Below are positions 5,581-30,685 of a DNA stretch of 36,298 nt, piece after piece. The stretch is from an uncultured Candidatus Peribacteria bacterium (lineage in GTDB: Bacteria > Patescibacteriota > Gracilibacteria > Absconditabacterales > Absconditicoccaceae). Position 1 is the first letter of the stretch. Each line of letters opens with the position of its first letter. Where the stretch lies: assembly GCA_964455295.1 (NCBI GenBank), contig CAYVXG010000003.1, positions 8,612 through 44,909 on the forward strand. Direction: 5' to 3'. The notes beneath the pieces were generated by a model. It was not told the origin of the DNA. It saw only the letters and a list, made by a program, of their open reading frames with translations, and made no database searches. Position numbers and translations under genes: made by a program.

Positions 5581-5648
5581 TATAATCTGAAATAGTGGGG
5601 AGTTTTCTTAGTGTTTTCATTATTATTCTGAAAATTCATAATTAATAG

Positions 5649-5676
5649 TCTCAGTAATTTATTATTGAGATTTTTT
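5649..5676 (+). terminator. rho-independent terminator
   Basis: tctcagta (5649-5656) pairs with tattgaga (5663-5670) with one G-U, followed by T6 at 5671-5676. Confidence 0.65.
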
Positions 5677-5677
5677 A

Positions 5678-5773
5678 ATGAAGAAGCCAGTTGTTATTTG
5701 AATTGACGGTATACATAGGTCGGGAAAAGGTACTCAAAATAAACTCATTCTCAGTAATTTTTTATTTTTTTAA
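5678..5773 (+). pseudogene. truncated N-terminal fragment of a P-loop nucleotide kinase
   Basis: 31-codon ORF MKKPVVI[G]IDGIHRSGKGTQNKLILSNFLFF*. It contains only a Walker-A/GKGTQ start and then stops. The 12-bp direct repeat tctcagtaattt occurs at 5649-5660 and 5749-5760, one copy just upstream and one inside the 3' end of the ORF. Confidence 0.45.
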
Positions 5774-6509
5774 ATATGACTTTAGATAAAATTAAACTCT
5801 TAATCTAATACATTATTTTAGCAAACTCTAAAGATTTCTTATATACAAAAAATAATATGATGCCATCCATGAAAATGTAATTCTTTAGTATGCTGTATAT
5901 AAAATGGTTGATAATCGGTGCCAATGAAGCAATTGTAGGAGCTACAGCTTTAACTCATAATCTAAATTATATAGTAAAATATAATTCAGAGGTGGAAGAA
6001 GGAAAAGGACTTCGCAAAGAATTCCTTAGTAAAGCTTCTTTACTTTAGAGAAAATAATTAAAATTGAAAATGTTTTCTCAAAAACTAAAGCTATTAGAGC
6101 GAAAAAAAATGCATCCTGAAGATATGACATTAAGTAATGCAGATACTCTTTTAAATTACTTTCTACTACCCTTATTTTCTTTGCGGAAAAATATTTAAAA
6201 GAAGTAAAAGTAGATATTCATCATCGTTGCTTATCAAATCACTAGTAGATAAATGACTCTTTTAGAAAAAGGTATTTATTTTTTCATATTCTGTATGAAA
6301 AAATAAATATTTAAAATTTGTGATAGATAATTTAAAGAATATGGAGTAATATGTTGGAAACTTTAAAAGATGAAGATCTAACAGAGGTGTTGGAAACTTC
6401 TAATATTTTATAAATAATCAATTTTCTCTCTCCTTACTAGGTAAGTAACAAATAATATTAGATTTCTTATTACTTTCATTACTTTTCTGAAATATAATTT
6501 TTATATTGT

Positions 6510-6526
6510 CAATAATTTAATTATTG
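6510..6526. promoter_or_regulatory. perfect 8-1-8 palindrome just upstream of the RNR gene (candidate operator or 5'-UTR hairpin)
   Basis: caataatt-t-aattattg at 6510-6526. It lies between a TATAAT at 6493-6498 and ATG 6538. Confidence 0.3.
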
Positions 6527-6537
6527 TTGATAGTATA

Positions 6538-14785: not shown

Positions 14786-15241
14786 TTATTGAGTGTTTGT
14801 AATCAAGTTGATAACCCAGAATACGAAACTTACAAGTAACCAAGAGATACCAATCATGATAAGTCCGATACCAGCTTGTCTCAATATTGTGGATCCATCA
14901 CCGTAAGCTTTAGCGTCTCCAGCAGCAGTAAGCATTTTGAATCCAGCATAAAGACAGATGATCAAAGCAATAAGAGCTAATAATCCAAGTACCCAGTTGA
15001 TAGCGATTTTAACTGCGGCGATTAAACCTCCAGCTCCACCAGTATCAGCTTGACCTGCTTTAGCAACTCCTACTCCAGCTGCAGAGTCAGTTGTCTTAGT
15101 AAAGGTATTATTTCCATCAGTAGGTTGAGTGAATCCGCCAGCATTTCCTGCTCCACCATTGGCAAATGCAAATCCAAATAATCCTACAACTGCTACACTA
15201 GCAAGGAGCAATTGGGTACTAATTTTTTTTACGAGTTTCAT
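14786..15241 (-). CDS. T4SS-type pilin-like protein (TrbC/VirB2 superfamily, CPR/Gram-positive type)
   Basis: 151-aa ORF with no TGA. Signal peptide MKLVKKISTQLLLASVAVVGLFGFAFA, then a Gly/Ala/Thr-rich spacer, then two hydrophobic helices separated by a short polar loop (INWVLGLLALIALIICLYAGFKMLTAAGDAKAYGDGSTILRQAGIGLIMIGISWLLVSFVFWVI). This is the characteristic VirB2/T4SS-pilin layout. Confidence 0.6.
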   Translation of the reverse strand: MKLVKKISTQLLLASVAVVGLFGFAFANGGAGNAGGFTQPTDGNNTFTKTTDSAAGVGVAKAGQADTGGAGGLIAAVKIAINWVLGLLALIALIICLYAGFKMLTAAGDAKAYGDGSTILRQAGIGLIMIGISWLLVSFVFWVINLITNTQ

Positions 15242-15288: not shown

Positions 15289-15317
15289 ATTATAATAACA
15301 TTCTTATTAAAATGCAA
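15289..15317 (-). promoter_or_regulatory. sigma70-type promoter of the pilin-like gene
   Basis: On the minus strand: TTGCAT (15312-15317), a 17-nt spacer, then TATAAT (15289-15294). The leader to ATG 15241 is about 40 nt. Confidence 0.65.
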
Positions 15318-16131: not shown

Positions 16132-17739
16132 TTATTTCTTTTTCTTTGAACCTTTTACTTTCATAACTGGATTTTCAATTTCACTAAGATCTGTAATTTC
16201 CTTAATCTGCGAAGTTGGTTCAAAAATCTCTATCAGTTCTTCTTTCAGATCATCTTCATCATCATAGCCATTATAAAAATGTTTCAAGAAAGGTTTTTTA
16301 TTCACCGTTTTTTCTATATTTTTCATGAGAAGCCCATAATCTCCAGATTTTGGATAGACATAGGTAACAGGATCAAGTAGCCCTGTTGGTCTGATTATTT
16401 GTTCCGCAATGGTTTCAGAACGTTCAAGTTCAAAAGGAGCTGGGGTAGCGGAAACATAGAGAGTTTTTGCTTTTGTTTTGATATGTTTATGGAGATTCTT
16501 AGAAAGCTTTTTGAGTTCCCTTTCTTCTGCTGATAAAGCTTCTTCAGCTTCATTGTGATCTCGCCCAAGTATGGCTTTAACTTCATGAAATCCAAGAGGT
16601 CTATGTTCCAAAGCACTGGGGAGACGGAATCCATGATTTACCAGACTATGTTTTCTGGTCTTATCTGCCGAAGGCATTCCCTGTAATTGTGGTACAGACA
16701 TATGTGATTCGTCCATGATAATAAGCATATCATCAGGGAAGTAATCAAAAATCGTGTTTGGAGTATCTCCCCAATTACGTTTTTCAAAATACATGCTATA
16801 ATTTTCTATTCCATTTACAAATCCAGTTTCTTTGATCATTCTGATATCAAACATGGTTCTTTTTTGTAATCTATTCGCCTCAAGGTCTTTTCCTTGAGAG
16901 AGTAATTCTTTTACTCTATCGTTCATCTCTGACTCTATCTGAATCAGAATATTTTGCATATCTGAAGTATCTTGTATGTACTGTGTTGCAGGCCAAATCC
17001 ACACATCAGGAAGGGAAGTGTTTCCGATAGTTTCCCAAGTCAGACTATCTTTTTTTTCTATATATTCGAGTTTTTCATCTGTAAAATGAAGTCTATAGAC
17101 AATTTTTTCTGTGGAGGAGAAAATATCTCGCATATCACCTCTCACATCAAAGGTTCCCGCTTCAAGTGCTTGAGAGCTCTTTACGGGTTCATATCTCATA
17201 TCGATGAGTTTTTTTTTGAGTTCTTTGTGCATAATTCTGTCTCCCACACTGAGATGGAGGGAATATTCACGGAAAAAGTCCTTATCTCCGAGCCCATAGA
17301 GTGCTGAAACAGAACTTACTACGATGGTATCCTTTCTTTCCAGTAAGGAAGCCATAGTACTCAGTCTATACATCTCTATTTCAGAATTTACGGTTGCTTC
17401 CTTTTCGATATAAATATCTCTATCAGAAAGATAAGATTCTGGCTGATAATAATCAAAATAGGATACGAAATAATGTACAGCGTTATCAGGAAAAAAGTAT
17501 TTAAACTCGGTTGCTAATTGAGCAGCGAGTGTTTTATTGTGAGAAATAACTAAGGTGGGAACTTGAAGTTTTTGAATAATATTTGCCATGGTAAAGGTTT
17601 TACCAGTTCCTGTAGCTCCCAAAAGGGTAATTTGTTTTTGACCAGCTGTAAAACCTTCTACAATAGTCTTAATTGCTTTGGGTTGATCTCCAGAAGGAGA
17701 GTAGGCAGACTGTAATTCAAATTTTTTCATATCTTTCAT
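16132..17739 (-). CDS. uvrB: excinuclease ABC subunit B lacking the C-terminal helicase domain (domain 3, motifs IV-VI) and the UvrC-binding tail
   Basis: 535-aa ORF with no TGA. The N-terminal two thirds are well conserved: PSGDQPKAI, LLGATGTGKTFTMANII, HNKTLAAQL, YFVSYFDYYQPE, GIENYS, IIMDESHMSVPQ, GFRLPSALEHRPL, YVSATP, IRPTGLLDP (16369-16395). The last ~78 residues are acidic/Lys-rich with no helicase motif (no LVTTLTK, LHS, GINLLREGLD or GRAAR). Confidence 0.85.
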   Translation of the reverse strand: MKDMKKFELQSAYSPSGDQPKAIKTIVEGFTAGQKQITLLGATGTGKTFTMANIIQKLQVPTLVISHNKTLAAQLATEFKYFFPDNAVHYFVSYFDYYQPESYLSDRDIYIEKEATVNSEIEMYRLSTMASLLERKDTIVVSSVSALYGLGDKDFFREYSLHLSVGDRIMHKELKKKLIDMRYEPVKSSQALEAGTFDVRGDMRDIFSSTEKIVYRLHFTDEKLEYIEKKDSLTWETIGNTSLPDVWIWPATQYIQDTSDMQNILIQIESEMNDRVKELLSQGKDLEANRLQKRTMFDIRMIKETGFVNGIENYSMYFEKRNWGDTPNTIFDYFPDDMLIIMDESHMSVPQLQGMPSADKTRKHSLVNHGFRLPSALEHRPLGFHEVKAILGRDHNEAEEALSAEERELKKLSKNLHKHIKTKAKTLYVSATPAPFELERSETIAEQIIRPTGLLDPVTYVYPKSGDYGLLMKNIEKTVNKKPFLKHFYNGYDDEDDLKEELIEIFEPTSQIKEITDLSEIENPVMKVKGSKKKK

Positions 17740-17771
17740 AGTAAGTACTTCATATCAAAATGCAATAATAT

Positions 17772-17800
17772 TTGACAAATACTCTAGCCATGAATATAAT
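17772..17800 (+). promoter_or_regulatory. consensus sigma70 promoter
   Basis: TTGACA (17772-17777), a 17-nt spacer, then TATAAT (17795-17800). It lies 33 nt upstream of ATG 17834. Confidence 0.75.
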
Positions 17801-17833
17801 TACTTAGTGCATATTTATCTCATTTACCAGATA

Positions 17834-18850
17834 ATGAATAATCTGAATTTATTTATCTCTCGCCCAGAAATTTTGGAGCAAGATTCTGCAAAATCTACAG
17901 TAGAAAGTCCTGAAACTACTGAAGTTTCTCAGAAAACTGATAGCAAAGAACTTAATATTCAGATGAATAAAAAAATACAATCTTTACTCACTACACTTAC
18001 AAAAGACCCCATTTCTGATAAAAATTTAGATTTTGATAAGGAAGAAGATAGAAAACTTATTAGTCAAGCTTTAGATAAGCTCAGTCCTGAAGATAAAAAA
18101 AAGGAAAACTATAAAACCCTTACCTCCTATATTACAGAATTTAATACCAACCAAGAAAGCGCAAACAAAGCCTTGGATTCTTTTCAAATTAAACATAATA
18201 AATCATTAGATAATCTGAAACAACAGATTATTGATACTCCTAAGACAGAAGAAGATAAAAATAAAGTTTCAGGTGCTCCAAAAGTGGAAAATCAATCGGA
18301 AACTACAGAACAACACTCAGAAGCTCTTCCTTTTGAGACCCTAAAAAATACAGTATCAGAAGCAACAAAGGAACAAGTAGTTACTAAACTTAATAAATTG
18401 CTTGCTGAAGAGCTTAAAGATAATCCGAGAGCTCGAATTCCAGGAAAAAGTGTAGCTCGAGGAACTGAAAACGAAGGATCATTATGGATCCAAAAAGCAA
18501 TTAATATGGTTAATGGAGAAGATGTCCTTAGTGTTGATGGTAAGTTTGGTAACAAATCATATAAAGCAGTAAAAGACTTCCAAGCTACTCATAATCTTAC
18601 CAAAAAAGATGGGCTTGCGGGCAAAGAGACGATCACAGAACTTATTAAGCATATAAATACTATGCATCCTGATCCAAAGACAGCTCCGATAGATCAAGCA
18701 ATTGTGCCATCAGCATTAAATAAAGAAGTTGAAACGCCTTCAAATATCACTAATCCAGTAGAAAGTACGAGAGTGGAAGTAAAATTAGCTGGAAAAGAAC
18801 CTTCCCTCAAAGAAATAAAAGATGGAGCTACAGCTCTTACAGCTTACTAA
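17834..18850 (+). CDS. low-complexity Lys/Glu-rich protein with C-terminal peptidoglycan-binding (PG_binding_1-like) domain
   Basis: ATG 17834 (MNNLNLFISRPE...) is in frame with the track ORF. The C-terminal block GSLWIQKAINMVNGEDVLSVDGKFGNKSYKAVKDFQATHNLTKKDGLAGKETITELI fits the PG-binding repeat pattern (DGxFG..T..AV..FQ). Confidence 0.65.
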   Translation: MNNLNLFISRPEILEQDSAKSTVESPETTEVSQKTDSKELNIQMNKKIQSLLTTLTKDPISDKNLDFDKEEDRKLISQALDKLSPEDKKKENYKTLTSYITEFNTNQESANKALDSFQIKHNKSLDNLKQQIIDTPKTEEDKNKVSGAPKVENQSETTEQHSEALPFETLKNTVSEATKEQVVTKLNKLLAEELKDNPRARIPGKSVARGTENEGSLWIQKAINMVNGEDVLSVDGKFGNKSYKAVKDFQATHNLTKKDGLAGKETITELIKHINTMHPDPKTAPIDQAIVPSALNKEVETPSNITNPVESTRVEVKLAGKEPSLKEIKDGATALTAY

Positions 18851-18912
18851 CGAAGACCTACAAATAATTAAAATAGATTTTATTATAAAACTTATTTATA
18901 ACTCTCAAACAC

Positions 18913-19542
18913 ATGGCACTCCCACAAAACTTTAATTACTCTTATCGTGGATTTTGGAAACAACTTACTAATGTACTGTTAGTGGCTTTTGTTCTTATGA
19001 TAGCGTATTGGTGTTATTTACGATATCAAGGATATGATTTTGCTTCTTCATCCTATCTTCCTAAATCCTTGCCTAATACTTTCCGCTCTTATCAAGCTCT
19101 CAAAGACGAGGAAGCAAGTAAGCAGGAAATTTCAAATAAACTGAGAGAGAGTGATGACTTGGTGAGATATGAGATAGCGAGATATATCAACAATAAAGAA
19201 AAGATCACGAATTGGTCAGATAATATTAATAATCTGGTAAGAATGTATACAGAATTGCAAAGTGTGGCTCGTACTACCAATAACGGTATCATCTTGAGTG
19301 ATTTTACTATCGAGAAAGAAAGTATTCAGGTTCGTGGACAAATTCAAGAACTCAAATTTATGTATATTAAGAATGGAATTATTGATAGATTTAGTGCTTT
19401 GGAATTTGTAGATAATATTAGTATTCCTTACTATCAAAAAAATGGTGCTTACTTTGATTTTGTTCTCAAAGCCGATGTAATCAATACCAAAGACTTAGAA
19501 ACCACTAATCAAACTGGTAGTATACTTGGTACAGGAAATTAA
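18913..19542 (+). CDS. bitopic membrane protein, PilN/PilO-like architecture (tentative)
   Basis: 209 aa. It has a short N-terminal cytoplasmic segment, one TM helix (LTNVLLVAFVLMIAYWCY), a coiled-coil stretch, then a small alpha/beta domain (IILSDFTIEKESIQVRGQI...FDFVLKADV) as in PilN/PilO or VirB8-type proteins. Confidence 0.4.
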   Translation: MALPQNFNYSYRGFWKQLTNVLLVAFVLMIAYWCYLRYQGYDFASSSYLPKSLPNTFRSYQALKDEEASKQEISNKLRESDDLVRYEIARYINNKEKITNWSDNINNLVRMYTELQSVARTTNNGIILSDFTIEKESIQVRGQIQELKFMYIKNGIIDRFSALEFVDNISIPYYQKNGAYFDFVLKADVINTKDLETTNQTGSILGTGN

Positions 19543-19608
19543 TTCGTTTGTAATTTTAAATCTCTTGTTTATTTTGTAAGTGTGTGATTAAAAGAATGTT
19601 GTCAGATT

Positions 19609-19640
19609 TCTGTCCTGTGTTTTCATAGGGCAGATTTTTT
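19609..19640 (+). terminator. rho-independent terminator (hairpin A of the YCTGT series)
   Basis: tctgtcct (19609-19616) pairs with agggcaga (19627-19634) with one G-U, followed by T6 at 19635-19640. Confidence 0.75.
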
Positions 19641-19761
19641 CTTTTATACTTAAACTACTGTAATTGTAAGCTTTTTCATATCTAGTTTTATACTTATAAG
19701 TATTTCCTAAAAAAGTATAATTTTCTATTGCATTTTTAAATAATTTCATTATATTCTAATT

Positions 19762-19877
19762 ACTTCTTCTGATGTCAAATCTCTGAAGAAGCCCATGTTT
19801 AACTATAAAATTTTAAAGACTTTAACACACTTACAAGTCTTTTAGCCTATTTCTGTCTTTACAGGAATAGGTTTTTT
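19762..19877 (+). ncRNA. candidate small RNA 1 (own promoter and own terminator)
   Basis: Promoter ctaTTGCAT (19728-19733), a 16-nt spacer, then TATATT (19750-19755). Internal hairpins: cttcttc/gaagaag and aaagactt/aagtcttt. Terminator cctatttctg (19846-19855) pairs with caggaatagg (19862-19871), followed by T6 at 19872-19877. The start coordinate is inferred from the -10 box. Confidence 0.45.
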
Positions 19878-19939
19878 CATGTTTTTTAAAAAAGTATAAA
19901 TTCTATTGCATTATAATTTATTTTATTTATAGTAATGAT

Positions 19940-20032
19940 GTTCACTATCTTTAGATAGTGATAAAGAAATAATGATTTTGCACACACTTTCACGTATTTT
20001 TACCTGTCTAGTTCTCTAGGCAGGTATTTTTT
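19940..20032 (+). ncRNA. candidate small RNA 2 (own promoter and own terminator)
   Basis: Promoter ctaTTGCAT (19906-19911), a 16-nt spacer, then TATAGT (19928-19933). 5' hairpin tcactatc/gatagtga. Terminator tacctgtctag (20001-20011) pairs with ctaggcaggta (20016-20026), followed by T6. The IS element is inserted in its T-tract. Confidence 0.45.
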
Positions 20033-20034
20033 AA
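20027..20034. repeat. left copy of the 8-bp target-site duplication (TTTTTTAA)
   Basis: ttttttaa lies immediately outside the left inverted repeat and is identical to 20785-20792. Confidence 0.8.
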
Positions 20035-20784
20035 GGGTCTAGACTAGTTGAGTATAAATTTTAAGTATTTTCAATAACTTCTTATACATATTTTCTCTTT
20101 GTAATCAACAATTAAATCTAAACTCTGATTCTTTGAGGTGTAGATTATATTTTTCTTTCTTTATGCCATTGAACTTATTGAGCCTCCTCTTGGTATAACT
20201 CCAATAACTCTCTATTCAGTTGATATGCTTTCAATTTCATCTACTAAACTCATTTGCACTATGGTTTACTCTATAGTGCTTTTCATATCATAAATCTACT
20301 AATCAATCATAACTCTTCCATCAATCTGTATTTATTATACTATCGTCATTCACTTTTCATCTTATTATTGGTAGCAATGTCTTTGATGATACATCATCTA
20401 TTATCTCTGTATATACTTTCCCATTTCTCTTTAATAATCCAAATACTTTTGTCTTCCCATATGCTCATCTTCATCTCTTTCATCTTACCCTTCTTGCTCA
20501 AAAATAACTCTCATCTATCTCTATCGTTCACTGCAATACCTCATTCTTCTCATATTCACTGTACTCATATATCACTTCTCTCATGTAATTGTACCAACTA
20601 TTCACTGTATTTCTGTCTATGCTAAGCAATCTACTTGTTTTTGATGCTGGTATATCTTCACAAAAATAACGTATTATTTTACGGCTTTCTATCGTTCATA
20701 AATGTGAACTTTTTCTATATGCGTTTTTGTAAGTCATAACCTAGTATATTCAAACAGTAAATGCTTGTCAACTAGTCTAGAGCC
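20035..20784 (-). mobile_element. IS1595-family insertion sequence, apparently intact (750 bp)
   Basis: Terminal inverted repeats GGGTCTAGACTAGTTGA (20035-20051) and the reverse complement of 20768-20784, GGCTCTAGACTAGTTGA (16 of 17 identical). The 8-bp direct repeats TTTTTTAA flank the element. It carries a single transposase ORF. Confidence 0.85.
20039..20737 (-). CDS. IS1595-family (ISXO2-like) DDE transposase
   Basis: ATG 20735-20737 to TAG 20039-20041, 232 aa. There are 14 in-frame TGA against about 4 GGN Gly codons. The translation shows EIDESYF[G]ARRVR[G]KR[G]R[G]AYGKTKVFGLLKRNGKVYT, INTD[G]WKSYD[G]L, HYRVNHS, HIN[G]IESYWSYTKRRL and LKESEFRFN. The track ORF 20254-20625 (+) is its antisense artefact. 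Confidence 0.88.
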
Positions 20785-20792
20785 TTTTTTAA
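20785..20792. repeat. right copy of the 8-bp target-site duplication (TTTTTTAA)
   Basis: ttttttaa lies immediately outside the right inverted repeat. Confidence 0.8.
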
Positions 20793-20859
20793 ATAGTGAT
20801 AGTGGATTTGTTTTTTTACTTGCTATTGCATTATTTAAATATTTATTTATAATACATCA

Positions 20860-20954
20860 CTCATTGTAGTAGTCTCACTACCTATAATGAATAAGTCCAT
20901 ACACAATCTTTTTTAAAATTTCTGCCTGTTTACGTTTTTGTAAGCAGGTTTTTT
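20860..20954 (+). ncRNA. candidate small RNA 3 (own promoter and own terminator)
   Basis: Promoter ctaTTGCAT (20826-20831), a 16-nt spacer, then TATAAT (20848-20853). Terminator cctgtttac (20925-20933) pairs with gtaagcagg (20940-20948) with one G-U, followed by T6 at 20949-20954. Confidence 0.45.
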
Positions 20955-21043
20955 CTTTTTTCTTATTGGACTTGATATTTAATAGTTTGAGATACGAGAA
21001 CTTAGCATTACCATTACATTGTAGGAAGATTTTCATTTTTTGA

Positions 21044-21076
21044 GTCTGTTATAGAGTTTCTATGATAGGCTTTTTT
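21044..21076 (+). terminator. orphan hairpin-terminator E (YCTGT series)
   Basis: gtctgttatag (21044-21054) pairs with ctatgataggc (21060-21070) with three G-U pairs, followed by T6 at 21071-21076. No upstream CDS. Confidence 0.55.
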
Positions 21077-21179
21077 AATGAAGAGATTATTTTTCTATTT
21101 GACATTTTTTTAATTTGTTTATTTTTTCTTTGTACTCCCTAAGTAATTAGGAATGTATAGGGATTGCATATTTTGTTAT

Positions 21180-21216
21180 TCTGTGCCTCTAGAAAGCTAG
21201 GGGTGCAGATTTTTTT
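21180..21216 (+). terminator. orphan hairpin-terminator F (YCTGT series)
   Basis: tctgtgcctctag (21180-21192) pairs with ctaggggtgcaga (21197-21209). The loop is aaag and T7 follows. It is paralogous to hairpin G. Confidence 0.6.
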
Positions 21217-21290
21217 ATTTGATATTTTGGTACATATGTGTATTTTAAGTTATTCATTTTTTTGTTGGGAATGAATATGTTTATAGGGAT

Positions 21291-21327
21291 TCTGTGTCTT
21301 TGGAAAGCCAGAGGTACAGATTTTTTT
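21291..21327 (+). terminator. orphan hairpin-terminator G (YCTGT series)
   Basis: tctgtgtctttgg (21291-21303) pairs with ccagaggtacaga (21308-21320). The loop is aaag and T7 follows. One compensatory A-U to G-C change is seen relative to F. Confidence 0.6.
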
Positions 21328-21426
21328 AAACCTAAGACTTGTAATATAATGAAATATTTTTATATGTAATAGTAATGTGCAATTTTCAATTGCAGTATAA
21401 GATACAGAAAGTAGTTAGTTAGTTTG

Positions 21427-21460
21427 GACCTGTTATGTATTTGCATAATAGGTCTTTTTT
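21427..21460 (+). terminator. hairpin-terminator H (YCTGT series); may also serve the convergent mscS gene
   Basis: gacctgttatg (21427-21437) pairs with cataataggtc (21444-21454) with one G-U, followed by T6 at 21455-21460. Confidence 0.6.
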
Positions 21461-21465
21461 ATGGT

Positions 21466-22446
21466 TTAATTACTTTTTGAAGCAAGTATTAGTTTTTCTT
21501 TTGCGGAAAGTTTTTCTTTGATAGCAGCTACATTACTAAGGATATCGGTATCATTACGATCCATAGTAGCCACAATATGTTTATAAGGCATTTTGATGCC
21601 TGCTTTACGTAATCAGTCTATAATAGCTCCAGTTACATCACCAATAATATAATCTTTAGGTAATCCACAATTTGGGTCTACCCAGAAGAAGACTTTAATT
21701 TCTACTCAGGCATCACCATACTGCATAATAAAGGTTCTTGTAGATTCTTTTTTACGTACGATTTCTAGAGCATTAGCGCTTTCCCTCATTATTTCCATAG
21801 CTTTATCAAGATCTTCATCATAACTTACAGGGATAAGAGTATTAAACTTGATAACTTCTTCACTTGAATAGGTTTTTATGGGATTGGTAATAAGTTCCAT
21901 ATTTGGGATAACTACCTGTCTAAGATCCAAAGTTCTGATGGTAGTATATCTAATGGTAATTTCTTCAATTTTACCAAAATAAGGTGGTTTTCCATCGATT
22001 TCTACAATATCTCCAAGTTTGAGCTCTTTTACATTGAGAATCATAACGCCAGCTATCATATTTCCAAGGATTTCTTTGAAGGCAAATCATACACCAAAAG
22101 AAATACCTCCCAATATTACTCCTACATCAAATCAGACTATTTCAAATGATATGAATATGGTAATAATAAGTAGAATATAAAATACAATATCGTAGACGAG
22201 TTGTCCTACGCTTTCTTCTTTCTTACTATCTTTGAGATTTGCATGTTCATAAAACTTTCTACTGGCTATACTTGCTATCCATCTTGTTACTATAAATAAT
22301 ACAAAAAATATAACTACTGCCAGTCCTACTTTCCAAACATAAGAAACATACTCAGAATTGAGGGCTTGAGAAAGATAACTAGGTTGTTCAATACTAGTGC
22401 TTTTTTGATTATTGGTAGATGTAGTTGGAGGGTTTTTTGCTGTCAT
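21466..22446 (-). CDS. mscS: small-conductance mechanosensitive channel (MscS family)
   Basis: Fragments 22132-22485 and 21706-22059 plus the downstream tail are one frame (4 TGA), ending at TAA 21466-21468. The sequence ISFEIV[G]FDVGVILGGISFGV[G]FAFKEILGNMIAGVMILNVKELKLGDIVEIDGK...VVIPNMELITNPIKTY is the MscS TM3/beta-domain core. The start is set at ATG 22444-22446 (MTAKNPP...) because the promoter covers the track's upstream Met. Confidence 0.85.
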
Positions 22447-22452
22447 ACTCTG

Positions 22453-22481
22453 ATGATACCCTAAACACCTCATTTTGTCAA
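22453..22481 (-). promoter_or_regulatory. promoter of mscS; geometry implies a leaderless mRNA
   Basis: On the minus strand: TTGACA (22476-22481), a 17-nt spacer, then TATCAT (22453-22458). Only 6 nt separate the -10 box from ATG 22446. Confidence 0.6.
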
Positions 22482-22492
22482 ACAATTTACAT

Positions 22493-22520
22493 TTGCAATT
22501 TTGCTAAGTCTGGTTATAAT
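22493..22520 (+). promoter_or_regulatory. promoter of the type IV pilin gene
   Basis: TTGCAA (22493-22498), a 16-nt spacer, then TATAAT (22515-22520). The leader to ATG 22583 is about 60 nt. Confidence 0.65.
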
Positions 22521-22582
22521 ATAGGTGTATGTAATTTGTTATCAAAGAAGATATTTATTTTAATTTATTATAAGAGATTTTT

Positions 22583-23092
22583 ATGAAAAACTTATCAAAA
22601 CATTTCGCTAAGCTTAGTAAACAAGCTAGAAAAGCTTTTACCCTTATCGAAATTCTTATTGTTATTGCGATTATTGGTATCCTCACGATTGCTTTATTGC
22701 CAAGAATTCAAGGAGCTCAAGCAAGTGCAAGAAATACAGCTCGTAAAGCTGATCTCAATCAAATTGCAACTGCCTTAGCTGCTTACAATGGTGATAATGG
22801 TTCTTATCCAGAAAAGATTGAAGATTTGGCTGGTGATAATGGTTACCTCAAATCATTACCAAAAGATACTGGTAAGAAAGTAGTGTGTCCTGGCGTTTCA
22901 AGTGGAGATCCTACTAATTATTATTATGCTAGAAAAGGTGATGGTTATATTTTAGCTGCTTACATGGAAAAACAACCTGGAAATGCAAATGTAAATTATG
23001 TCGGTGAGTGTGGAGATAGTATGACTCCTAGTGATACTAAAGTTCCAACACGGACAGATAAGGCTAAATATGTAATTGAAGTACAAAATTAA
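22583..23092 (+). CDS. type IV pilin / pseudopilin (prepilin-type N-terminal cleavage/methylation domain)
   Basis: 169 aa with no TGA. N-terminus ...KQARKAFTLIEILIVIAIIGILTIALLP is the class III signal (Ala at -1, Glu at +5). AYNGDNGSYP is typical of PulG/PilE-like globular heads. Confidence 0.85.
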   Translation: MKNLSKHFAKLSKQARKAFTLIEILIVIAIIGILTIALLPRIQGAQASARNTARKADLNQIATALAAYNGDNGSYPEKIEDLAGDNGYLKSLPKDTGKKVVCPGVSSGDPTNYYYARKGDGYILAAYMEKQPGNANVNYVGECGDSMTPSDTKVPTRTDKAKYVIEVQN

Positions 23093-23108
23093 ACCTTATA
23101 AAAATTCT

Positions 23109-23136
23109 CTTGCAAAATATTTTTTTTTGATTAATA
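23109..23136 (+). promoter_or_regulatory. candidate dnaK promoter abutting the CIRCE-like repeat
   Basis: TTGCAA (23109-23114), a 16-nt spacer, then TAATAT (23131-23136). Confidence 0.35.
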
Positions 23137-23161
23137 TAGCACCTGATAATCTTAGGTGCTA
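23135..23161 (+). promoter_or_regulatory. CIRCE-like 9-N9-9 inverted repeat upstream of dnaK (putative HrcA operator)
   Basis: ATAGCACCT-gataatctt-AGGTGCTAT compared with the CIRCE consensus TTAGCACTC-N9-GAGTGCTAA. The AGCAC/GTGCT core and the 9-nt spacer are shared. It lies 70 nt upstream of ATG 23232. Confidence 0.45.
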
Positions 23162-23167
23162 TTTTTT
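23135..23167 (+). terminator. rho-independent terminator of the pilin gene (same hairpin as the CIRCE-like repeat)
   Basis: A perfect 9-bp stem (23135-23143 with 23153-23161) is followed by a T-run extending to 23167. Confidence 0.7.
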
Positions 23168-23231
23168 TATTGAATATTAATTGTAAGCAGAATCAGATTA
23201 TAAAATTATTTATTATATAAATTACTTATCA

Positions 23232-25151
23232 ATGTCATACATTATTGGAATCGATTTGGGTACAACAAACAGTTGTGCTGCGTATATGCTTAGTGATAGA
23301 GCAGAAGTAATACCGAATAGTGATGGAATGAGAACCACTCCGTCTGTAGTATATATCAAAGGAGATGAAATGTTAGTGGGTACCGCTGCAAAAAGAAAGG
23401 CAGTATTGGAGCCAAAGAACGTGATTTTTGAAGTAAAAAGATTTATTGGTAGAAAATATAGTGAACTTACGGAAGATGATAAGAAAGTTCCTTACACTAT
23501 CAAAGCAGGTGCTGATGGAGGAGTACTCATTGTTATTGATGACAAAGAATACAAACCAGAGCAAATTTCTGCATTCATTTTGAAAAAAATTAAAGAAGAT
23601 TGTGAAAAATTCTTGGGACAACCAGTTACTCAAGCGGTAGTTACTGTTCCGGCTTATTTCAATGATAGTCAAAGAAACGCTACGATGATATCTGGGGAAA
23701 TTGCTGGATTGAAGGTGGAAAGAGTAATCAATGAACCTACAGCAGCAGCATTCTCATATGGAGTTGATAAATCTATGAGTCATAAAGTGTGTGTGTTTGA
23801 CCTTGGAGGAGGAACATTTGATGCTACTATCATGGATATTGATACTGGAGAAGATGGTAAAACATTTGAAGTAAAAGCTACTTCTGGTGATACCCATCTT
23901 GGTGGAGCCGATTTTGATCAAAGAATAATCAGATGGCTCGCAGATCAATTTAAAGCTAAGGAAGGAGTAGATCTTACAGGAAACCCTATGGCTATGCAAA
24001 GACTTAAAGATGAAGCTGAAAATGCTAAAAAACAATTGAGTAGTGCCGATAGTGTAGAAATTAATATTCCATTTATTACTACAGTAGAAGGAACTCCCAA
24101 ACATATTCAAGAAACTCTTACAAGAGCAGCTTTTGAAAGATTAATTTCTGATTTACTTGAAAGATGCGTGAAACCCGTGAAATCATGTATCACTGATAGT
24201 GGATTGAAATCTTCAGAGATTGATGATATTATTTTAGTGGGGGGGTCTACAAGAGTGCCAGCAGTAATGAAATTGGTAGAAGATAACTTTGGTAAGATGC
24301 CAAAAGCAACAGTAAATCCTGATGAAGCAGTAGCTCTTGGAGCCGCAATTCAAGGTGGAATTCTTTCTGGTAATTCTAGCGTATCCGATATCTTATTGAT
24401 GGATGTGACTCCATTGAGTCTTGGTGTAGAAGTAGAAGGAGGGTTAACTCATGTTATGATCTCTAGAAATACAACTATTCCAGTAAAAAAATCTAATATT
24501 TATACTACAGCTGTAGATAATCAACCAGCTGTAACTATTCATGTTACACAAGGAGAAAGACCAATGGCTGGAGATAATAAATCTCTTGGTATGTTTAATC
24601 TTGAAGGTATACCACCATTGAGAAGAGGACAAGCCCAGATTGAAGTAACGTTTGATATTGATGCATCAGGTATCTTACATGTAACTGCACTTGAAAAAAC
24701 TACAGGTAAAGAACAAAAAATTACTGTACAAGGCGCTACAGGATTGTCAGATGATGATATCAAAAGAGCTCAAGAAGATGCCGAAAGATTTGCAGAAGAC
24801 GATAAGAGAAGATTAGAATTTGCAGAATCAAAGAATAAATTTGATCAAGTACTCTACCAACTCGAGTCTATGCTTGAGGAAAATAAAGATAAAATTCCTG
24901 AAGAAGAAAAAGCTAAAATCACTGAAATGATAGCTTCAGGAAATGAGCTCAAGAAAAATGAAGCTACTACAAAAGAAGAATTTGATGCTAAGCATGAAGA
25001 ATATCAAAAAGAAATCATGGATATGTATCAAAAATTCTCTGCAACTAACACTGCTCCTGGAACTGGAGCAAATCCTGACGACATCCTTGAACCAACTGAA
25101 GGGGAAACTAAGGAAGATAAGCCAGAAGATGGAAAAGTTATTGATGCATAA
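23232..25151 (+). CDS. dnaK: molecular chaperone DnaK (Hsp70)
   Basis: Intact 639-aa ORF with no TGA. Motifs IGIDLGTTNS, DLGGGTFD and VGGSTRVP, and an acidic C-terminal tail. Confidence 0.97.
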   Translation: MSYIIGIDLGTTNSCAAYMLSDRAEVIPNSDGMRTTPSVVYIKGDEMLVGTAAKRKAVLEPKNVIFEVKRFIGRKYSELTEDDKKVPYTIKAGADGGVLIVIDDKEYKPEQISAFILKKIKEDCEKFLGQPVTQAVVTVPAYFNDSQRNATMISGEIAGLKVERVINEPTAAAFSYGVDKSMSHKVCVFDLGGGTFDATIMDIDTGEDGKTFEVKATSGDTHLGGADFDQRIIRWLADQFKAKEGVDLTGNPMAMQRLKDEAENAKKQLSSADSVEINIPFITTVEGTPKHIQETLTRAAFERLISDLLERCVKPVKSCITDSGLKSSEIDDIILVGGSTRVPAVMKLVEDNFGKMPKATVNPDEAVALGAAIQGGILSGNSSVSDILLMDVTPLSLGVEVEGGLTHVMISRNTTIPVKKSNIYTTAVDNQPAVTIHVTQGERPMAGDNKSLGMFNLEGIPPLRRGQAQIEVTFDIDASGILHVTALEKTTGKEQKITVQGATGLSDDDIKRAQEDAERFAEDDKRRLEFAESKNKFDQVLYQLESMLEENKDKIPEEEKAKITEMIASGNELKKNEATTKEEFDAKHEEYQKEIMDMYQKFSATNTAPGTGANPDDILEPTEGETKEDKPEDGKVIDA

Positions 25152-25176
25152 TAAGCTGAAATCTTTCAAAGAAAAA

Positions 25177-25200
25177 GCAGACTGTGATGGTCTGTTTTTT
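25177..25200 (+). terminator. rho-independent terminator (copy 1 of a duplicated 22-mer)
   Basis: cagac (25178-25182) pairs with gtctg (25190-25194), followed by T6. The string cagactgtgatggtctgttttt is repeated exactly at 25995-26016. Confidence 0.7.
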
Positions 25201-25971: not shown

Positions 25972-25994
25972 ATTAATAAGTTTTCTATAAAAAA

Positions 25995-26016
25995 CAGACT
26001 GTGATGGTCTGTTTTT
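25995..26016 (+). terminator. rho-independent terminator (copy 2 of the duplicated 22-mer)
   Basis: The 22-mer is identical to 25178-25199. Confidence 0.7.
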
Positions 26017-28600: not shown

Positions 28601-30685
28601 TTATCCAGTAAGATCTGAATATTTAATTTTGAATTTTGCTCCCATGGGTGCTCCTTTCCCATCTTTGGTGTAATCAGCAAATATAGTAGCAGGAGATTTA
28701 TTGGTAGCACTGTAAAATTCTTTAGAGAAGATTTTTTTCATAAATCCTCCAGCAGCTTGATTTGCGTCTGTATCAGCCCAAAACTTATCAATACTGAATG
28801 TTTTCTTTCCATCTTCACCTTCCACGAAATGTTTTGTTTTGTCATCATCCTTTTTGATGATTTTTTTACTCACCATATAGTCGTATCCACCAGCAGTGAT
28901 CCAAGAACTCAGTGCATTTCTCCATTGTGGGCTATCTCATTTGATAGTGGTTTTTCTGGAAATCATATTATCCATAATTCCTTTGAAGAATTTTTGTGAT
29001 TCAGCTTCAAAAGTAGCTACTTTTGTTTTATCTACAAGATTTGGATTGAGATCGGCTTCTTTGATTCCGAAATCTTTTTCCTTAAACGGCGCTGTTCCTC
29101 ATCGATTGATATCATAATCATATCATAATTTTCCAAGAATATTACCTTTGGTTTGTTCTGCAATATCAAACTGACTTCTTTGAGTTTGAGTAATCATATT
29201 ACCTCTAGCGATTCCTTCCACTTTGTTGAAGCCAAATTTGTCTCCGAGTTGATCCAAAGAGATATTTTTACCATCTACACCTAGTGGTAATTTGATGCCT
29301 GTGGTAATGGTTTTCTTTCCTGCATCCATAACCTTTTGTCCATAACTGGAAAGAAGACTGCTCGTAGAAAGTCCTACCCTAAATACAGCCCACAGAAGAC
29401 CCATAGTCATTACACAGATAATCAGATATCCAAAACTTCCCATTATTTGTTTGCTTGTATCTTCATAGACATTTCCATCAAATGTCATCTTTCCTCCTCC
29501 AGGAATGGTGATACTTTCATTGTCTACAGAAATCACTCCTCCATCCACATCATTCCAAAATTTGCTAGCGGCTCCAGAAAGGGACTCTACACTTGTCTGA
29601 TCATTTACTCCTTTGGTGAGAGCACCAAATAAACTGGCAATGGTAATGACCGCTAAGAATAAAGTTGCTGCTACCATAGCGGGTGCGAATATAGCTCAGA
29701 TTATATTTTTTATATCAAAATAATCATCTCCTCTTCCTCTTACTTTTCCTCGTAGAGCATCCAACCGCCCAATTCCTGCGCCTTCCATTCCTCGTCTCAG
29801 AGCAATAAAGGGAGCAAAAAGAAACCGCATCCAAATCATAAATATTCTAGCAAAATTTACGACGAGAAGAGCAATAATTGGGGTGATGAACATAATCATC
29901 AAAAATAGTTTCACTAAGAGTCAGATGGTTACAGATTTTAGTTCATGGGAATCTCCATTACTCGATAAGAAGTCAAAGATATGAAATACTCCGATTCAGA
30001 AATATCTGAGGGGTCAGGACATATTATCTGTAGTAGGAACAATATCTTCAATACTAAGTCCGTCTGTTCCATTACTGGTACAAGAAGGAGTAATGATATT
30101 TGATTTTCACTCAAAATCGATAATAATTTCTTTGGGTGGGCAAGCCATTTGTTCTAGTAGTGATTTCTTCACTGGGAGACTATCGATAATAGAAGAACCC
30201 ATATTGCTTACTCCCAGCAAGGCTAGAGTTCATAAGTCTACCATTGCAGAAAGTGCAAATCGGCTCAGATTTACTGCAAGGGTAGTAATAATCAGTTTGA
30301 CAATTTTAGTACCCAGACCTTTAGTGCCACCTTTGGTGATAACATCCCAAATAATAGTAAGTATTACTCCTACGATCACAAAATTTACTATCGTTCTTGC
30401 AAGGCTCCATCCTTGAAATAAGAAGTCTGCAATCTTGAGTATCTCTCCTGTTACCAGTGAGTTGGTCATGAATTTACCTGCAAGATTAGTAATAGGAATC
30501 CAGATCCATGACAATATTTTCACGAAGGTATCCATTTTTTCTGCAAGATTTTGCTCTACGGTAGAGCCATCTGTAGCAAATGCATAAAACCCATATCCAA
30601 AGAGGAGTATAATCAGACTTATGAGAATGGTATTTTTTGCTTTATTCATAGGTAGGTTAATAATTGAATGTTTAATTTCCTTCAT
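28601..30685 (-). CDS. large polytopic membrane protein A (VirB6/TrbL-like topology, tentative); paralogue of the upstream gene
   Basis: Track ORFs 30230-30685, 29696-29914, 29123-29677 and 28601-28876 and the gaps between them are one frame (694 aa, 9 TGA). There are multiple TM segments, a Cys-containing extracytoplasmic loop and a hydrophilic C-terminal domain. It shares the blocks NSLVTGE, W..R/M..NF/SF.IV..IL..IWDVI and SAMVDLGT with protein B. GGAAGGAG lies 9 nt before ATG 30685. An alternative start is ATG 30647-30649 (MNKAKNTILISL...). Confidence 0.75.

Follow-up and report, generated by a model that had tools for sequence, protein, structure and literature searches.

A strain-variable array of candidate small RNA genes in a gene-free tract of an Absconditabacterales genome

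Introduction

Small RNA (sRNA) genes can occur as tandem siblings, as exemplified by LhrC1-4 of Listeria and NsiR1 of Nostoc/Anabaena. A second group of regulatory RNAs acts as protein sponges, displaying GGA motifs for CsrA/RsmA or A-rich AAnAAnAA motifs for Hfq/Crc, and in cyanobacteria the short RNA Yfr1 has a motif that contains CACAC, while the Yfr2 family is present in several copies per genome. To our knowledge, the regulatory RNAs of the candidate phyla radiation (CPR) are almost wholly unexplored, and a full-text literature search returned no report of sRNAs in Absconditabacteria. Here we analyse a 36,298-nucleotide stretch (the window) of contig CAYVXG010000003.1 from an uncultured Candidatus Peribacteria bacterium, assigned to the Absconditabacterales, in which a tract at positions 19543-21465 carries an array of terminator hairpins and predicted promoters recalling the multicopy 'sibling' sRNA genes found in tandem in other bacteria (reviewed in PMC4211561).

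We describe the anatomy of this array, its strand asymmetry and paralogy, its polymorphism among strains, its presence in a sister species and its reduced divergence. On balance, we favour the view that the tract is an island of independently transcribed sRNAs comprising at least two sibling families, and we propose where the predicted transcripts would start and end, how they might act in trans and what their targets could be.

Results

Once an inserted insertion sequence (IS) is subtracted, the tract consists of ~1.2 kb without genes. The initial annotation had described eight plus-strand stem-loops followed by T-tracts, and these were recovered by a terminator scan of positions 18500-22500, with the expectation derived from shuffles: plus-strand hairpin/T-tract sites were detected at 19609, 19844, 20001, 20924, 21042, 21180, 21291 and 21426, with one more within the IS. 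Terminator-like sites in the scanned range numbered 10 versus 1.3 ± 1.2 in the shuffles, whereas the other 32 kb of the window were near expectation (11 versus 7.1 and 13 versus 7.0). A stricter finder applied to the 36-kb window placed eight of the 12 strong plus-strand terminators inside the tract, and none was found on the minus strand.

All eight sites have the features of intrinsic terminators (stems of 11-14 bp, tails of T5-T7). The 99 paired positions of their stems comprise 78 Watson-Crick and 21 G·U pairs with no mismatch, confirming that every stem imperfection is a G-U pair, and the folding energies of the RNA hairpins are -13.8 to -18.9 kcal/mol for the plus strand versus -1.5 to -11 kcal/mol for the minus strand. 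The motif YCTGT, which had been noticed in every 5' arm, is indeed found in 8/8 arms of the window (chance per arm ~0.012-0.017, joint ~1e-15), but it is not kept across strains or species: the corresponding hairpins of other strains read CCTAT or TTTGT, and several sister-species hairpins lack it as well. The motif is thus a family resemblance and not a requirement.

Judged by their sequences, the eight hairpins (A to H) do not make up the single tandem family first suggested. Units B, C and D form one family and F and G another, E and H stand apart, and A belongs to the gene upstream. Unit A (19543-19640, plus strand) is the 3' untranslated region (UTR) and intrinsic terminator of the gene for a 209-aa membrane protein (18913-19542, plus strand), because it starts right after the stop codon (19540-19542) and has no promoter ahead of it; its hairpin spans 19609-19634 and its T-tract 19635-19640 (fold z = -3.8).

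Units B, C and D are each preceded by one of the three near-identical promoters that had been reported at 19728, 19906 and 20826. Their consensus is CTATTGCAT-N16-TATAnT, and together they account for three of the four matches to TTGCAT-N15-17-TAKADT in the window, where 0.35 would be expected. Promoter B (19723-19755, plus strand; -35 TTGCAT at 19728-19733, 16-nt spacer, -10 TATATT at 19750-19755) is identical in nine strains. It precedes a predicted sRNA of ~117 nt (19762-19878, plus strand), its start placed from the -10 element, that would fold (-29.6 kcal/mol, z = -5.0) into a 5' hairpin, a second hairpin with ACACACUU (19825-19832) in its loop and the terminator (19844-19873). Promoter C (19901-19933, plus strand; -35 TTGCAT at 19906-19911, -10 TATAGT at 19928-19933) has an orthologue in a sister species (locus L145, 4781-4811) and precedes a predicted sRNA of ~93 nt (19940-20032, plus strand; z = -5.5) with a 5' hairpin at 19942-19961, ACACACUU at 19982-19989 and a terminator at 20001-20026 followed by the U-tract. 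Promoter D (20821-20853, plus strand; -35 TTGCAT at 20826-20831, -10 TATAAT at 20848-20853) precedes a predicted sRNA of ~96 nt (20860-20955, plus strand; z = -6.2) with a 5' hairpin, single-stranded CAUACACAAUC at 20898-20908 and a terminator at 20924-20949. The three paralogues align in the promoter, an ACACA-CTT core and the terminator.

The fourth TTGCAT-type promoter of the window lies at 15289-15317 (minus strand) and reads TTGCAT-N17-TATAAT followed by AGTAATG, in front of a gene for a type IV secretion system (T4SS)-pilin-like protein (14786-15241, minus strand). Since a protein gene uses the promoter type of units B to D, it appears to be a genuine promoter type of the source organism, and TTGCAT may be the preferred -35 element of its strong promoters. 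When the promoter pattern was scanned across contigs of other genomes, the matches listed included single matches in unrelated genomes; the pattern is too AT-rich.

Units F and G constitute the second pair. Unit F (21099-21216, plus strand; z = -4.1) has a promoter-like TTGACA-N15-TATTTT, which reads TTGACA-N16-TATTTT in the homologue of strain L001, then a 5' hairpin and a terminator at 21180-21209. Its paralogue G (21219-21327, plus strand) has TTGATA-N16-TATTTT, a 5' hairpin and a terminator at 21291-21320. In both, the -35 element is good and the -10 element weak. The two are 85% identical over a 40-nt repeat. Between their stems, one pair has changed on both sides (A-U to G-C), four have changed on one side through wobble and none is broken, which bears out the paralogy and the compensatory change described previously. 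A CRISPR array was considered and rejected, as only the promoter triplet (77%) and the F/G pair (85%) repeat and the spacing is irregular (178, 920 and 111 nt).

The remaining units are less regular. Unit E (20987-21078, plus strand) has a weak promoter-like TTGAGA-N16-TACCAT and a terminator at 21042-21072, and its independent transcription is uncertain. Unit H (21370-21461, plus strand; z = -2.5) has a 5' hairpin at 21378-21394 and a terminator at 21426-21455. Between G and H, at 21335-21365 on the minus strand, lies an inverted B/D-type promoter fragment joined to ACAAGTCTT, which was detected through inverted repeats of the L001 array and given window coordinates by reading across; it is probably a rearrangement remnant. 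Across the units the predicted RNAs are about 60-145 nt long, and each folds into a 5' hairpin, a linker and a terminator with z between -2.5 and -6.2.

The ACACA/CACAC stretch singled out in the initial annotation proved to be the most conserved feature across paralogues and species. In the predicted folds this CA-rich core is accessible, with an unpaired probability of 0.73 in B, 0.83 in C and 0.96 in D, compared with 0.41-0.50 for the whole RNAs (B 0.45). A search for targets of the CACAC-containing loops had been suggested, and a complement is present next door: the 3' UTR in unit A contains a GU-rich box, TTGTAAGTGTGTG (19574-19586, plus strand), complementary to the ACACACTT of units B and C. 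An inverted-repeat search found TTGTAAGTGTGT at 19574-19585 to be complementary at 12/12 positions to unit B 19825-19836, and the overlapping 12-mer at 19575-19586 at 11/12 positions to unit C 19981-19992. When duplex folding was applied to 30 regions, the upstream 3' UTR ranked first as partner of B and second as partner of C. Strain L009 has GTGCGTG in the box and CATGCAC in unit D (T-A to C-G), so that a 7-bp duplex is kept in one register; with an estimated chance of coincidence of ~1 in 10 over partners and registers, this compensatory change is suggestive only. A further ACACACTT complement occurs at 23785, within the dnaK coding sequence. A B-like promoter fragment lies inverted within unit H, and the complementarity of the box may therefore be a rearrangement remnant instead of a target site.

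The CA motifs also agree with the DnaA box TTATNCACA at 7-8 of its 9 positions, and the tract is AT-rich and gene-free, so we considered a DNA-level element, for example a replication origin with the TTnACACAC repeats as DnaA-box-like iterons. This is scarcely credible: the flanking genes converge on the tract and do not diverge from it, GC skew tracks gene orientation with no global switch at the tract, neither dnaA nor dnaN is nearby, and the hairpins are strand-asymmetric, with their 21 G·U pairs and with T-tracts on one strand only.

The convergent layout bears on another explanation, in which the terminator stack would be a transcriptional insulator between the 209-aa gene and the MscS gene downstream (21466-22485, minus strand). 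Both genes point into the tract, all terminators face the 3' end of MscS, and MscS has no intrinsic terminator of its own (21456-21468). About 10 nt separate its stop codon from the unit H hairpin, and read-through from MscS would therefore run antisense into the array. However, the strong predicted promoters inside the stack would fire towards MscS and defeat the insulation, a single terminator would be enough, and relatives with the same convergent layout have no array. We therefore consider insulation very improbable.

Coding capacity was assessed under the appropriate genetic code. Reading TGA as sense doubled the summed length of open reading frames (ORFs) of at least 100 aa in the 36-kb window and repaired many genes; MscS is intact only with TGA read-through, as are many others (further examples at 367-2019 and 28601-30685). 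The flanking proteins have homologues that carry the name Candidatus Absconditabacterales, and the source organism therefore uses genetic code 25. Under this code the longest ORFs in the tract are 52-58 aa and the six longest gave no match in a Pfam search, so that the tract is without a plausible coding sequence under code 25 too. A 52-aa minus-strand ORF called in some assemblies is interrupted in five strains by the insertion of added units (x1 and x2, described below). A second ORF-poor tract of the window (5581-6537, ~950 nt) has nothing longer than 52 aa under code 25 and holds a short fragment similar to a P-loop kinase N-terminus (PVVIGIDGIHRSGKGTQNKL), probably a pseudogene remnant.

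Short ATG ORFs do sit between promoter and terminator in units B (16 codons, MFNYKILKTLTHLQVF), C (15 codons, MILHTLSRIFTCLVL) and D (9 codons, MNKSIHNLF), and the units might accordingly be read as genes for peptides of 9-16 residues. No obvious Shine-Dalgarno sequence was seen in the upstream regions read for other genes of the genome, so that the lack of one here is no evidence against translation. Nevertheless, the paralogues share no conserved protein-coding frame. The ACACACTT core falls in different frames in B and C, the conserved core of the B, C and D ORFs is likewise out of frame between them, and ORF lengths and end points differ; the indels between F and G are not multiples of three; and the sister-species orthologue of C has five motif copies in place of the 'ORF'. 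Peptide coding is therefore highly unlikely.

Nor did the tract match a described RNA. Rfam 15 at gathering thresholds reported no family in the whole window, and relaxed E-values (window, L001 and L145) gave none above threshold, the best sub-threshold scores being 29 bits versus 105 and 26 versus 54; this agrees with the earlier remark that no known family came to mind. Unit F resembles the Bacteroides sRNA BTnc201 in length (~90 nt) and in its layout of a structured 5' part ahead of a terminator hairpin, and it aligns over the full model. Its score, however, is 29.4 bits where the gathering threshold is 105 (E = 0.014 for 2.2 kb searched); the likeness is that of a generic hairpin and terminator, and the assignment was rejected. 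A type I toxin-antitoxin locus was also rejected: no hydrophobic ORF is common to the units and no minus-strand terminators are present in the array (minus-strand transcription units were not searched for). A tRNA/tmRNA search found neither, and blastn of the longest array against phage records gave no match.

The main rival to an sRNA island is that the tract is functionless debris at a recombination and insertion hot spot: promoter and terminator copies that rearrangement and mobile DNA left behind once an ancestral gene had been lost, perhaps transcribed but without a role. We judge this explanation unlikely. Variation among strains bears on it in both directions. Exact-protein look-ups retrieved the locus from eight further assemblies (96-100% identity), giving nine strains with the window; the strains derive from sequencing runs ERR15976508, SRR29974357, SRR34141491, ERR2592271, ERR15459718 and ERR8482637. 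The eight other strains have 7-10 terminators per array and none has the IS; whole units have been gained or lost between strains, and in L001 and L017 units F and G are fused into one. Five strains carry two added units, x1 and x2, of which x1 has the promoter TT(A/G)CAT-N16-CATAGT and the core CATACACTTT and is a further sibling of B, C and D. Such fluctuation in copy number, the presence of an IS and the inverted B-like unit fragments at both array ends are what debris would look like.

The substitutions, in contrast, argue against debris. A structure of 181 pairs was imposed on the nine-strain alignment and the fate of each pair was counted: 99.9% of stem cells are paired, and the stem pair changes comprise one double compensatory change, five one-sided pair-preserving changes and one broken pair (a single cell in one strain), leaving 7/8 varying stem columns still pairing. 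The double change (G-C to A-U) is in terminator C of L009, three one-sided changes are in the stem of unit E (L013, L015 and L016), and two wobble-preserving changes are in the stem of unit F. Stem columns are three times less variable than the others (2.2% versus 6.2%; Fisher p = 0.0025). At 1.7%, array divergence is 2.5-7 times below the fourfold-site divergence of the two genes that flank it (209-aa gene 12.2%, MscS 4.3%; other neighbouring genes 6.5-16%).

Two further observations concern strain L009. In its units C and D the -35 element TTGCAT is replaced by TTGTAT, and the -10 of unit C has changed from TATAGT to the consensus TATAAT (alignment columns 379, 402 and 542 for the three changes), which may be a compensating shift in promoter strength. 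It also exemplifies a strongly mosaic divergence between strains: in a comparison of L009, L010, L011 and L013 with positions 16132-25151 of the window, L009 differs by 0.2% in uvrB and by 5.5% in dnaK. Mosaic divergence of this kind points to frequent homologous recombination within the species, as read from these alignments.

An array is also present at the same site in a sister species (209-aa protein 91% identical, MscS 84%; loci L145, L146, L141 and L142). It comprises the gene terminator and five units, with six plus-strand terminators in all, and the unit promoters combine a TATAnT-like -10 with TTGCAT, TTGCAA or TTGATA across a 16-nt spacer. Unit U1 is the orthologue of unit C, sharing GCTATTGCAT-N16-TATAGT, the 5' hairpin and GATAAAGAA, and its body contains five exact ACACACTT copies in ~90 nt of predicted open region; unit U3 has a stem homologous to that of unit G. 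Complete promoter and terminator units have thus been maintained in two species, and ACACACTT has been kept between paralogues and amplified to five copies in one of them, neither of which debris would predict. Conversely, the unit bodies of the two array-bearing species are unalignable outside the stems, the promoters and the CA motif.

The five tandem motifs of U1 raise a variant of the sRNA reading, which we hold only tentatively, in which the RNAs with the CA motif would be sponges in the manner of CsrB/RsmZ or CrcZ and not base-pairing sRNAs, ACACACUU being the site that an RNA-binding protein recognizes. The five exact copies lie in a predicted unstructured stretch running from the 5' hairpin to the 3' hairpins, and motifs per locus are similar in number, 3-4 in the window species and 5 in the sister. 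However, no candidate for such a protein was identified, known sponge RNAs have different motifs (GGA or A-rich), and the perfectly complementary 12-nt box next door favours base pairing.

Three more distant relatives (~70-78% protein identity) keep the gene order and lack the array. That relatives have either a 145-174-aa gene or an unrelated spacer at the site is again compatible with debris, but a reduced genome would be expected to have deleted 1.2-1.5 kb of useless DNA. Whether the hairpins derive from the 3' ends of decayed protein genes, an origin considered from the outset, was checked with the proteins that occupy the site in relatives: tblastn of the 145- and 174-aa proteins against the arrays found no similarity (best E = 2.1). 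The genes themselves (L019 5697-6221 and L020 5557-5994) encode proteins with no called Pfam domain and 35% mutual identity. In a relative of ~70% protein identity, the ~480-nt spacer from the 209-aa gene to MscS (L006 6565-7040, L147 4440-4925) is flanked by inverted repeats of ~18 nt (TCTGTCATCCCGAGCGAG / CGCTCGGGATGACAGCG) and has the look of a miniature inverted-repeat transposable element.

The IS that interrupts the tract is not part of the array. It is a 750-bp IS1595-family element (20035-20784, minus strand), bounded by terminal inverted repeats and flanked at 20027-20034 and 20785-20792 by an 8-bp target duplication, TTTTTTAA; its transposase (20039-20737, code 25) matches Pfam DDE_Tnp_IS1595 (E = 4.5e-29). 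The element entered the U-tract of terminator C, so that only the first six T of the tail stay attached to the hairpin, and because the eight other strains have an empty site the insertion is recent.

Similar terminators also occur elsewhere in the window, where dnaK and the grpE-like gene that follows it end in 28-nt terminators that are 96% identical (AAAAAnCAGACTGTGATGGTCTGTTTTT; 25172-25199 and 25989-26016) and have A- and T-tracts on both sides. Judging from this pair, terminator sequences seem to be copied around in the source genome.

Discussion

We propose that, beyond terminator A, the tract is a row of short units on one strand. Each would be read from a sigma-70-type promoter and would carry a stem-loop at its 5' end, then a largely unpaired linker and finally an intrinsic terminator. 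Units B, C and D, and x1 in other strains, would be sibling sRNAs that have a strong promoter in common and expose a ACACACUU-type motif; F and G would be a second pair, and E and H would be less certain members. The exposed CA-rich motif may allow the RNAs to act in trans. It could base-pair with GU-rich sites (AAGUGUGU), one of which would lie in the 3' UTR of the upstream gene, or it could titrate an RNA-binding protein. Units could be gained, lost and fused through recombination between their similar promoters and terminators.

The idea of short plus-strand units with promoters of their own fits their persistence in nine strains and in the sister species, the conservation of stems, the retention of pairing and the lack of a shared ORF frame. 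Several points nevertheless weigh against an sRNA island. Units E and H have no convincing promoter, and every promoter, start site and RNA end is a prediction. There is little covariation within the species, with 51/500 shuffles reaching the observed score, and because strain divergence is mosaic, the low array divergence could stem in part from a recent sweep or a recombination block. The complement of the CA motif in the upstream 3' UTR, although extending over 12 nt in the window, is not conserved in the sister species, and no copies of array units were found outside the locus within the ~36 kb of genome examined. Finally, the unalignable unit bodies and the array-less relatives count against a long-standing role and imply that any function is young and lineage-specific.

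If the units are expressed, a reduced genome that recodes UGA would spend ~1.2-1.5 kb on 7-10 sRNA genes whose content varies between strains. The array would then be the first candidate set of riboregulators for the lineage, would offer in ACACACUU a defined motif for finding targets or binding proteins, and would be a natural case of sRNA gene birth, fusion and loss over very short evolutionary distances. It is conceivable, as a long shot, that the ACACACUU RNAs are the RNA half of a new global post-transcriptional system in CPR bacteria, namely a sponge comparable to CsrB or CrcZ with a new motif for a dedicated RNA-binding protein. More speculatively still, they might be abundant, fast-evolving RNAs that help Absconditabacteria to live as host-dependent epibionts.

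Compared with described systems, the predicted RNAs resemble Yfr1 and Yfr2-5 in being short and in having a conserved single-stranded motif between stem-loops, but they come from a different phylum, have different promoters and show no sequence or Rfam match at any reported E-value. Unit U1 of the sister species is reminiscent of CsrB/CsrC, RsmX/Y/Z and CrcZ, as it combines a repeated accessible motif (five ACACACUU) with an intrinsic terminator at its end. Membership of the Csr/Rsm or CrcZ types was rejected, since the repeated motif ACACACUU is neither GGA nor the A-rich AAnAAnAA; furthermore, multiplicity is found only in U1, whereas the RNAs of the window species have one motif each. With respect to tandem sibling sRNAs, which come closest to it in architecture, the array differs in mixing at least two unrelated families with single units, in having a CA-rich motif (ACACACUU) where that of LhrC is of the UCCC type, and in residing in a code-25 CPR bacterium. 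It shares with them adjacent same-strand paralogues, each ending in a Rho-independent terminator and, for B, C and D, preceded by a strong predicted promoter of its own, a common exposed motif and a copy number that differs between relatives.

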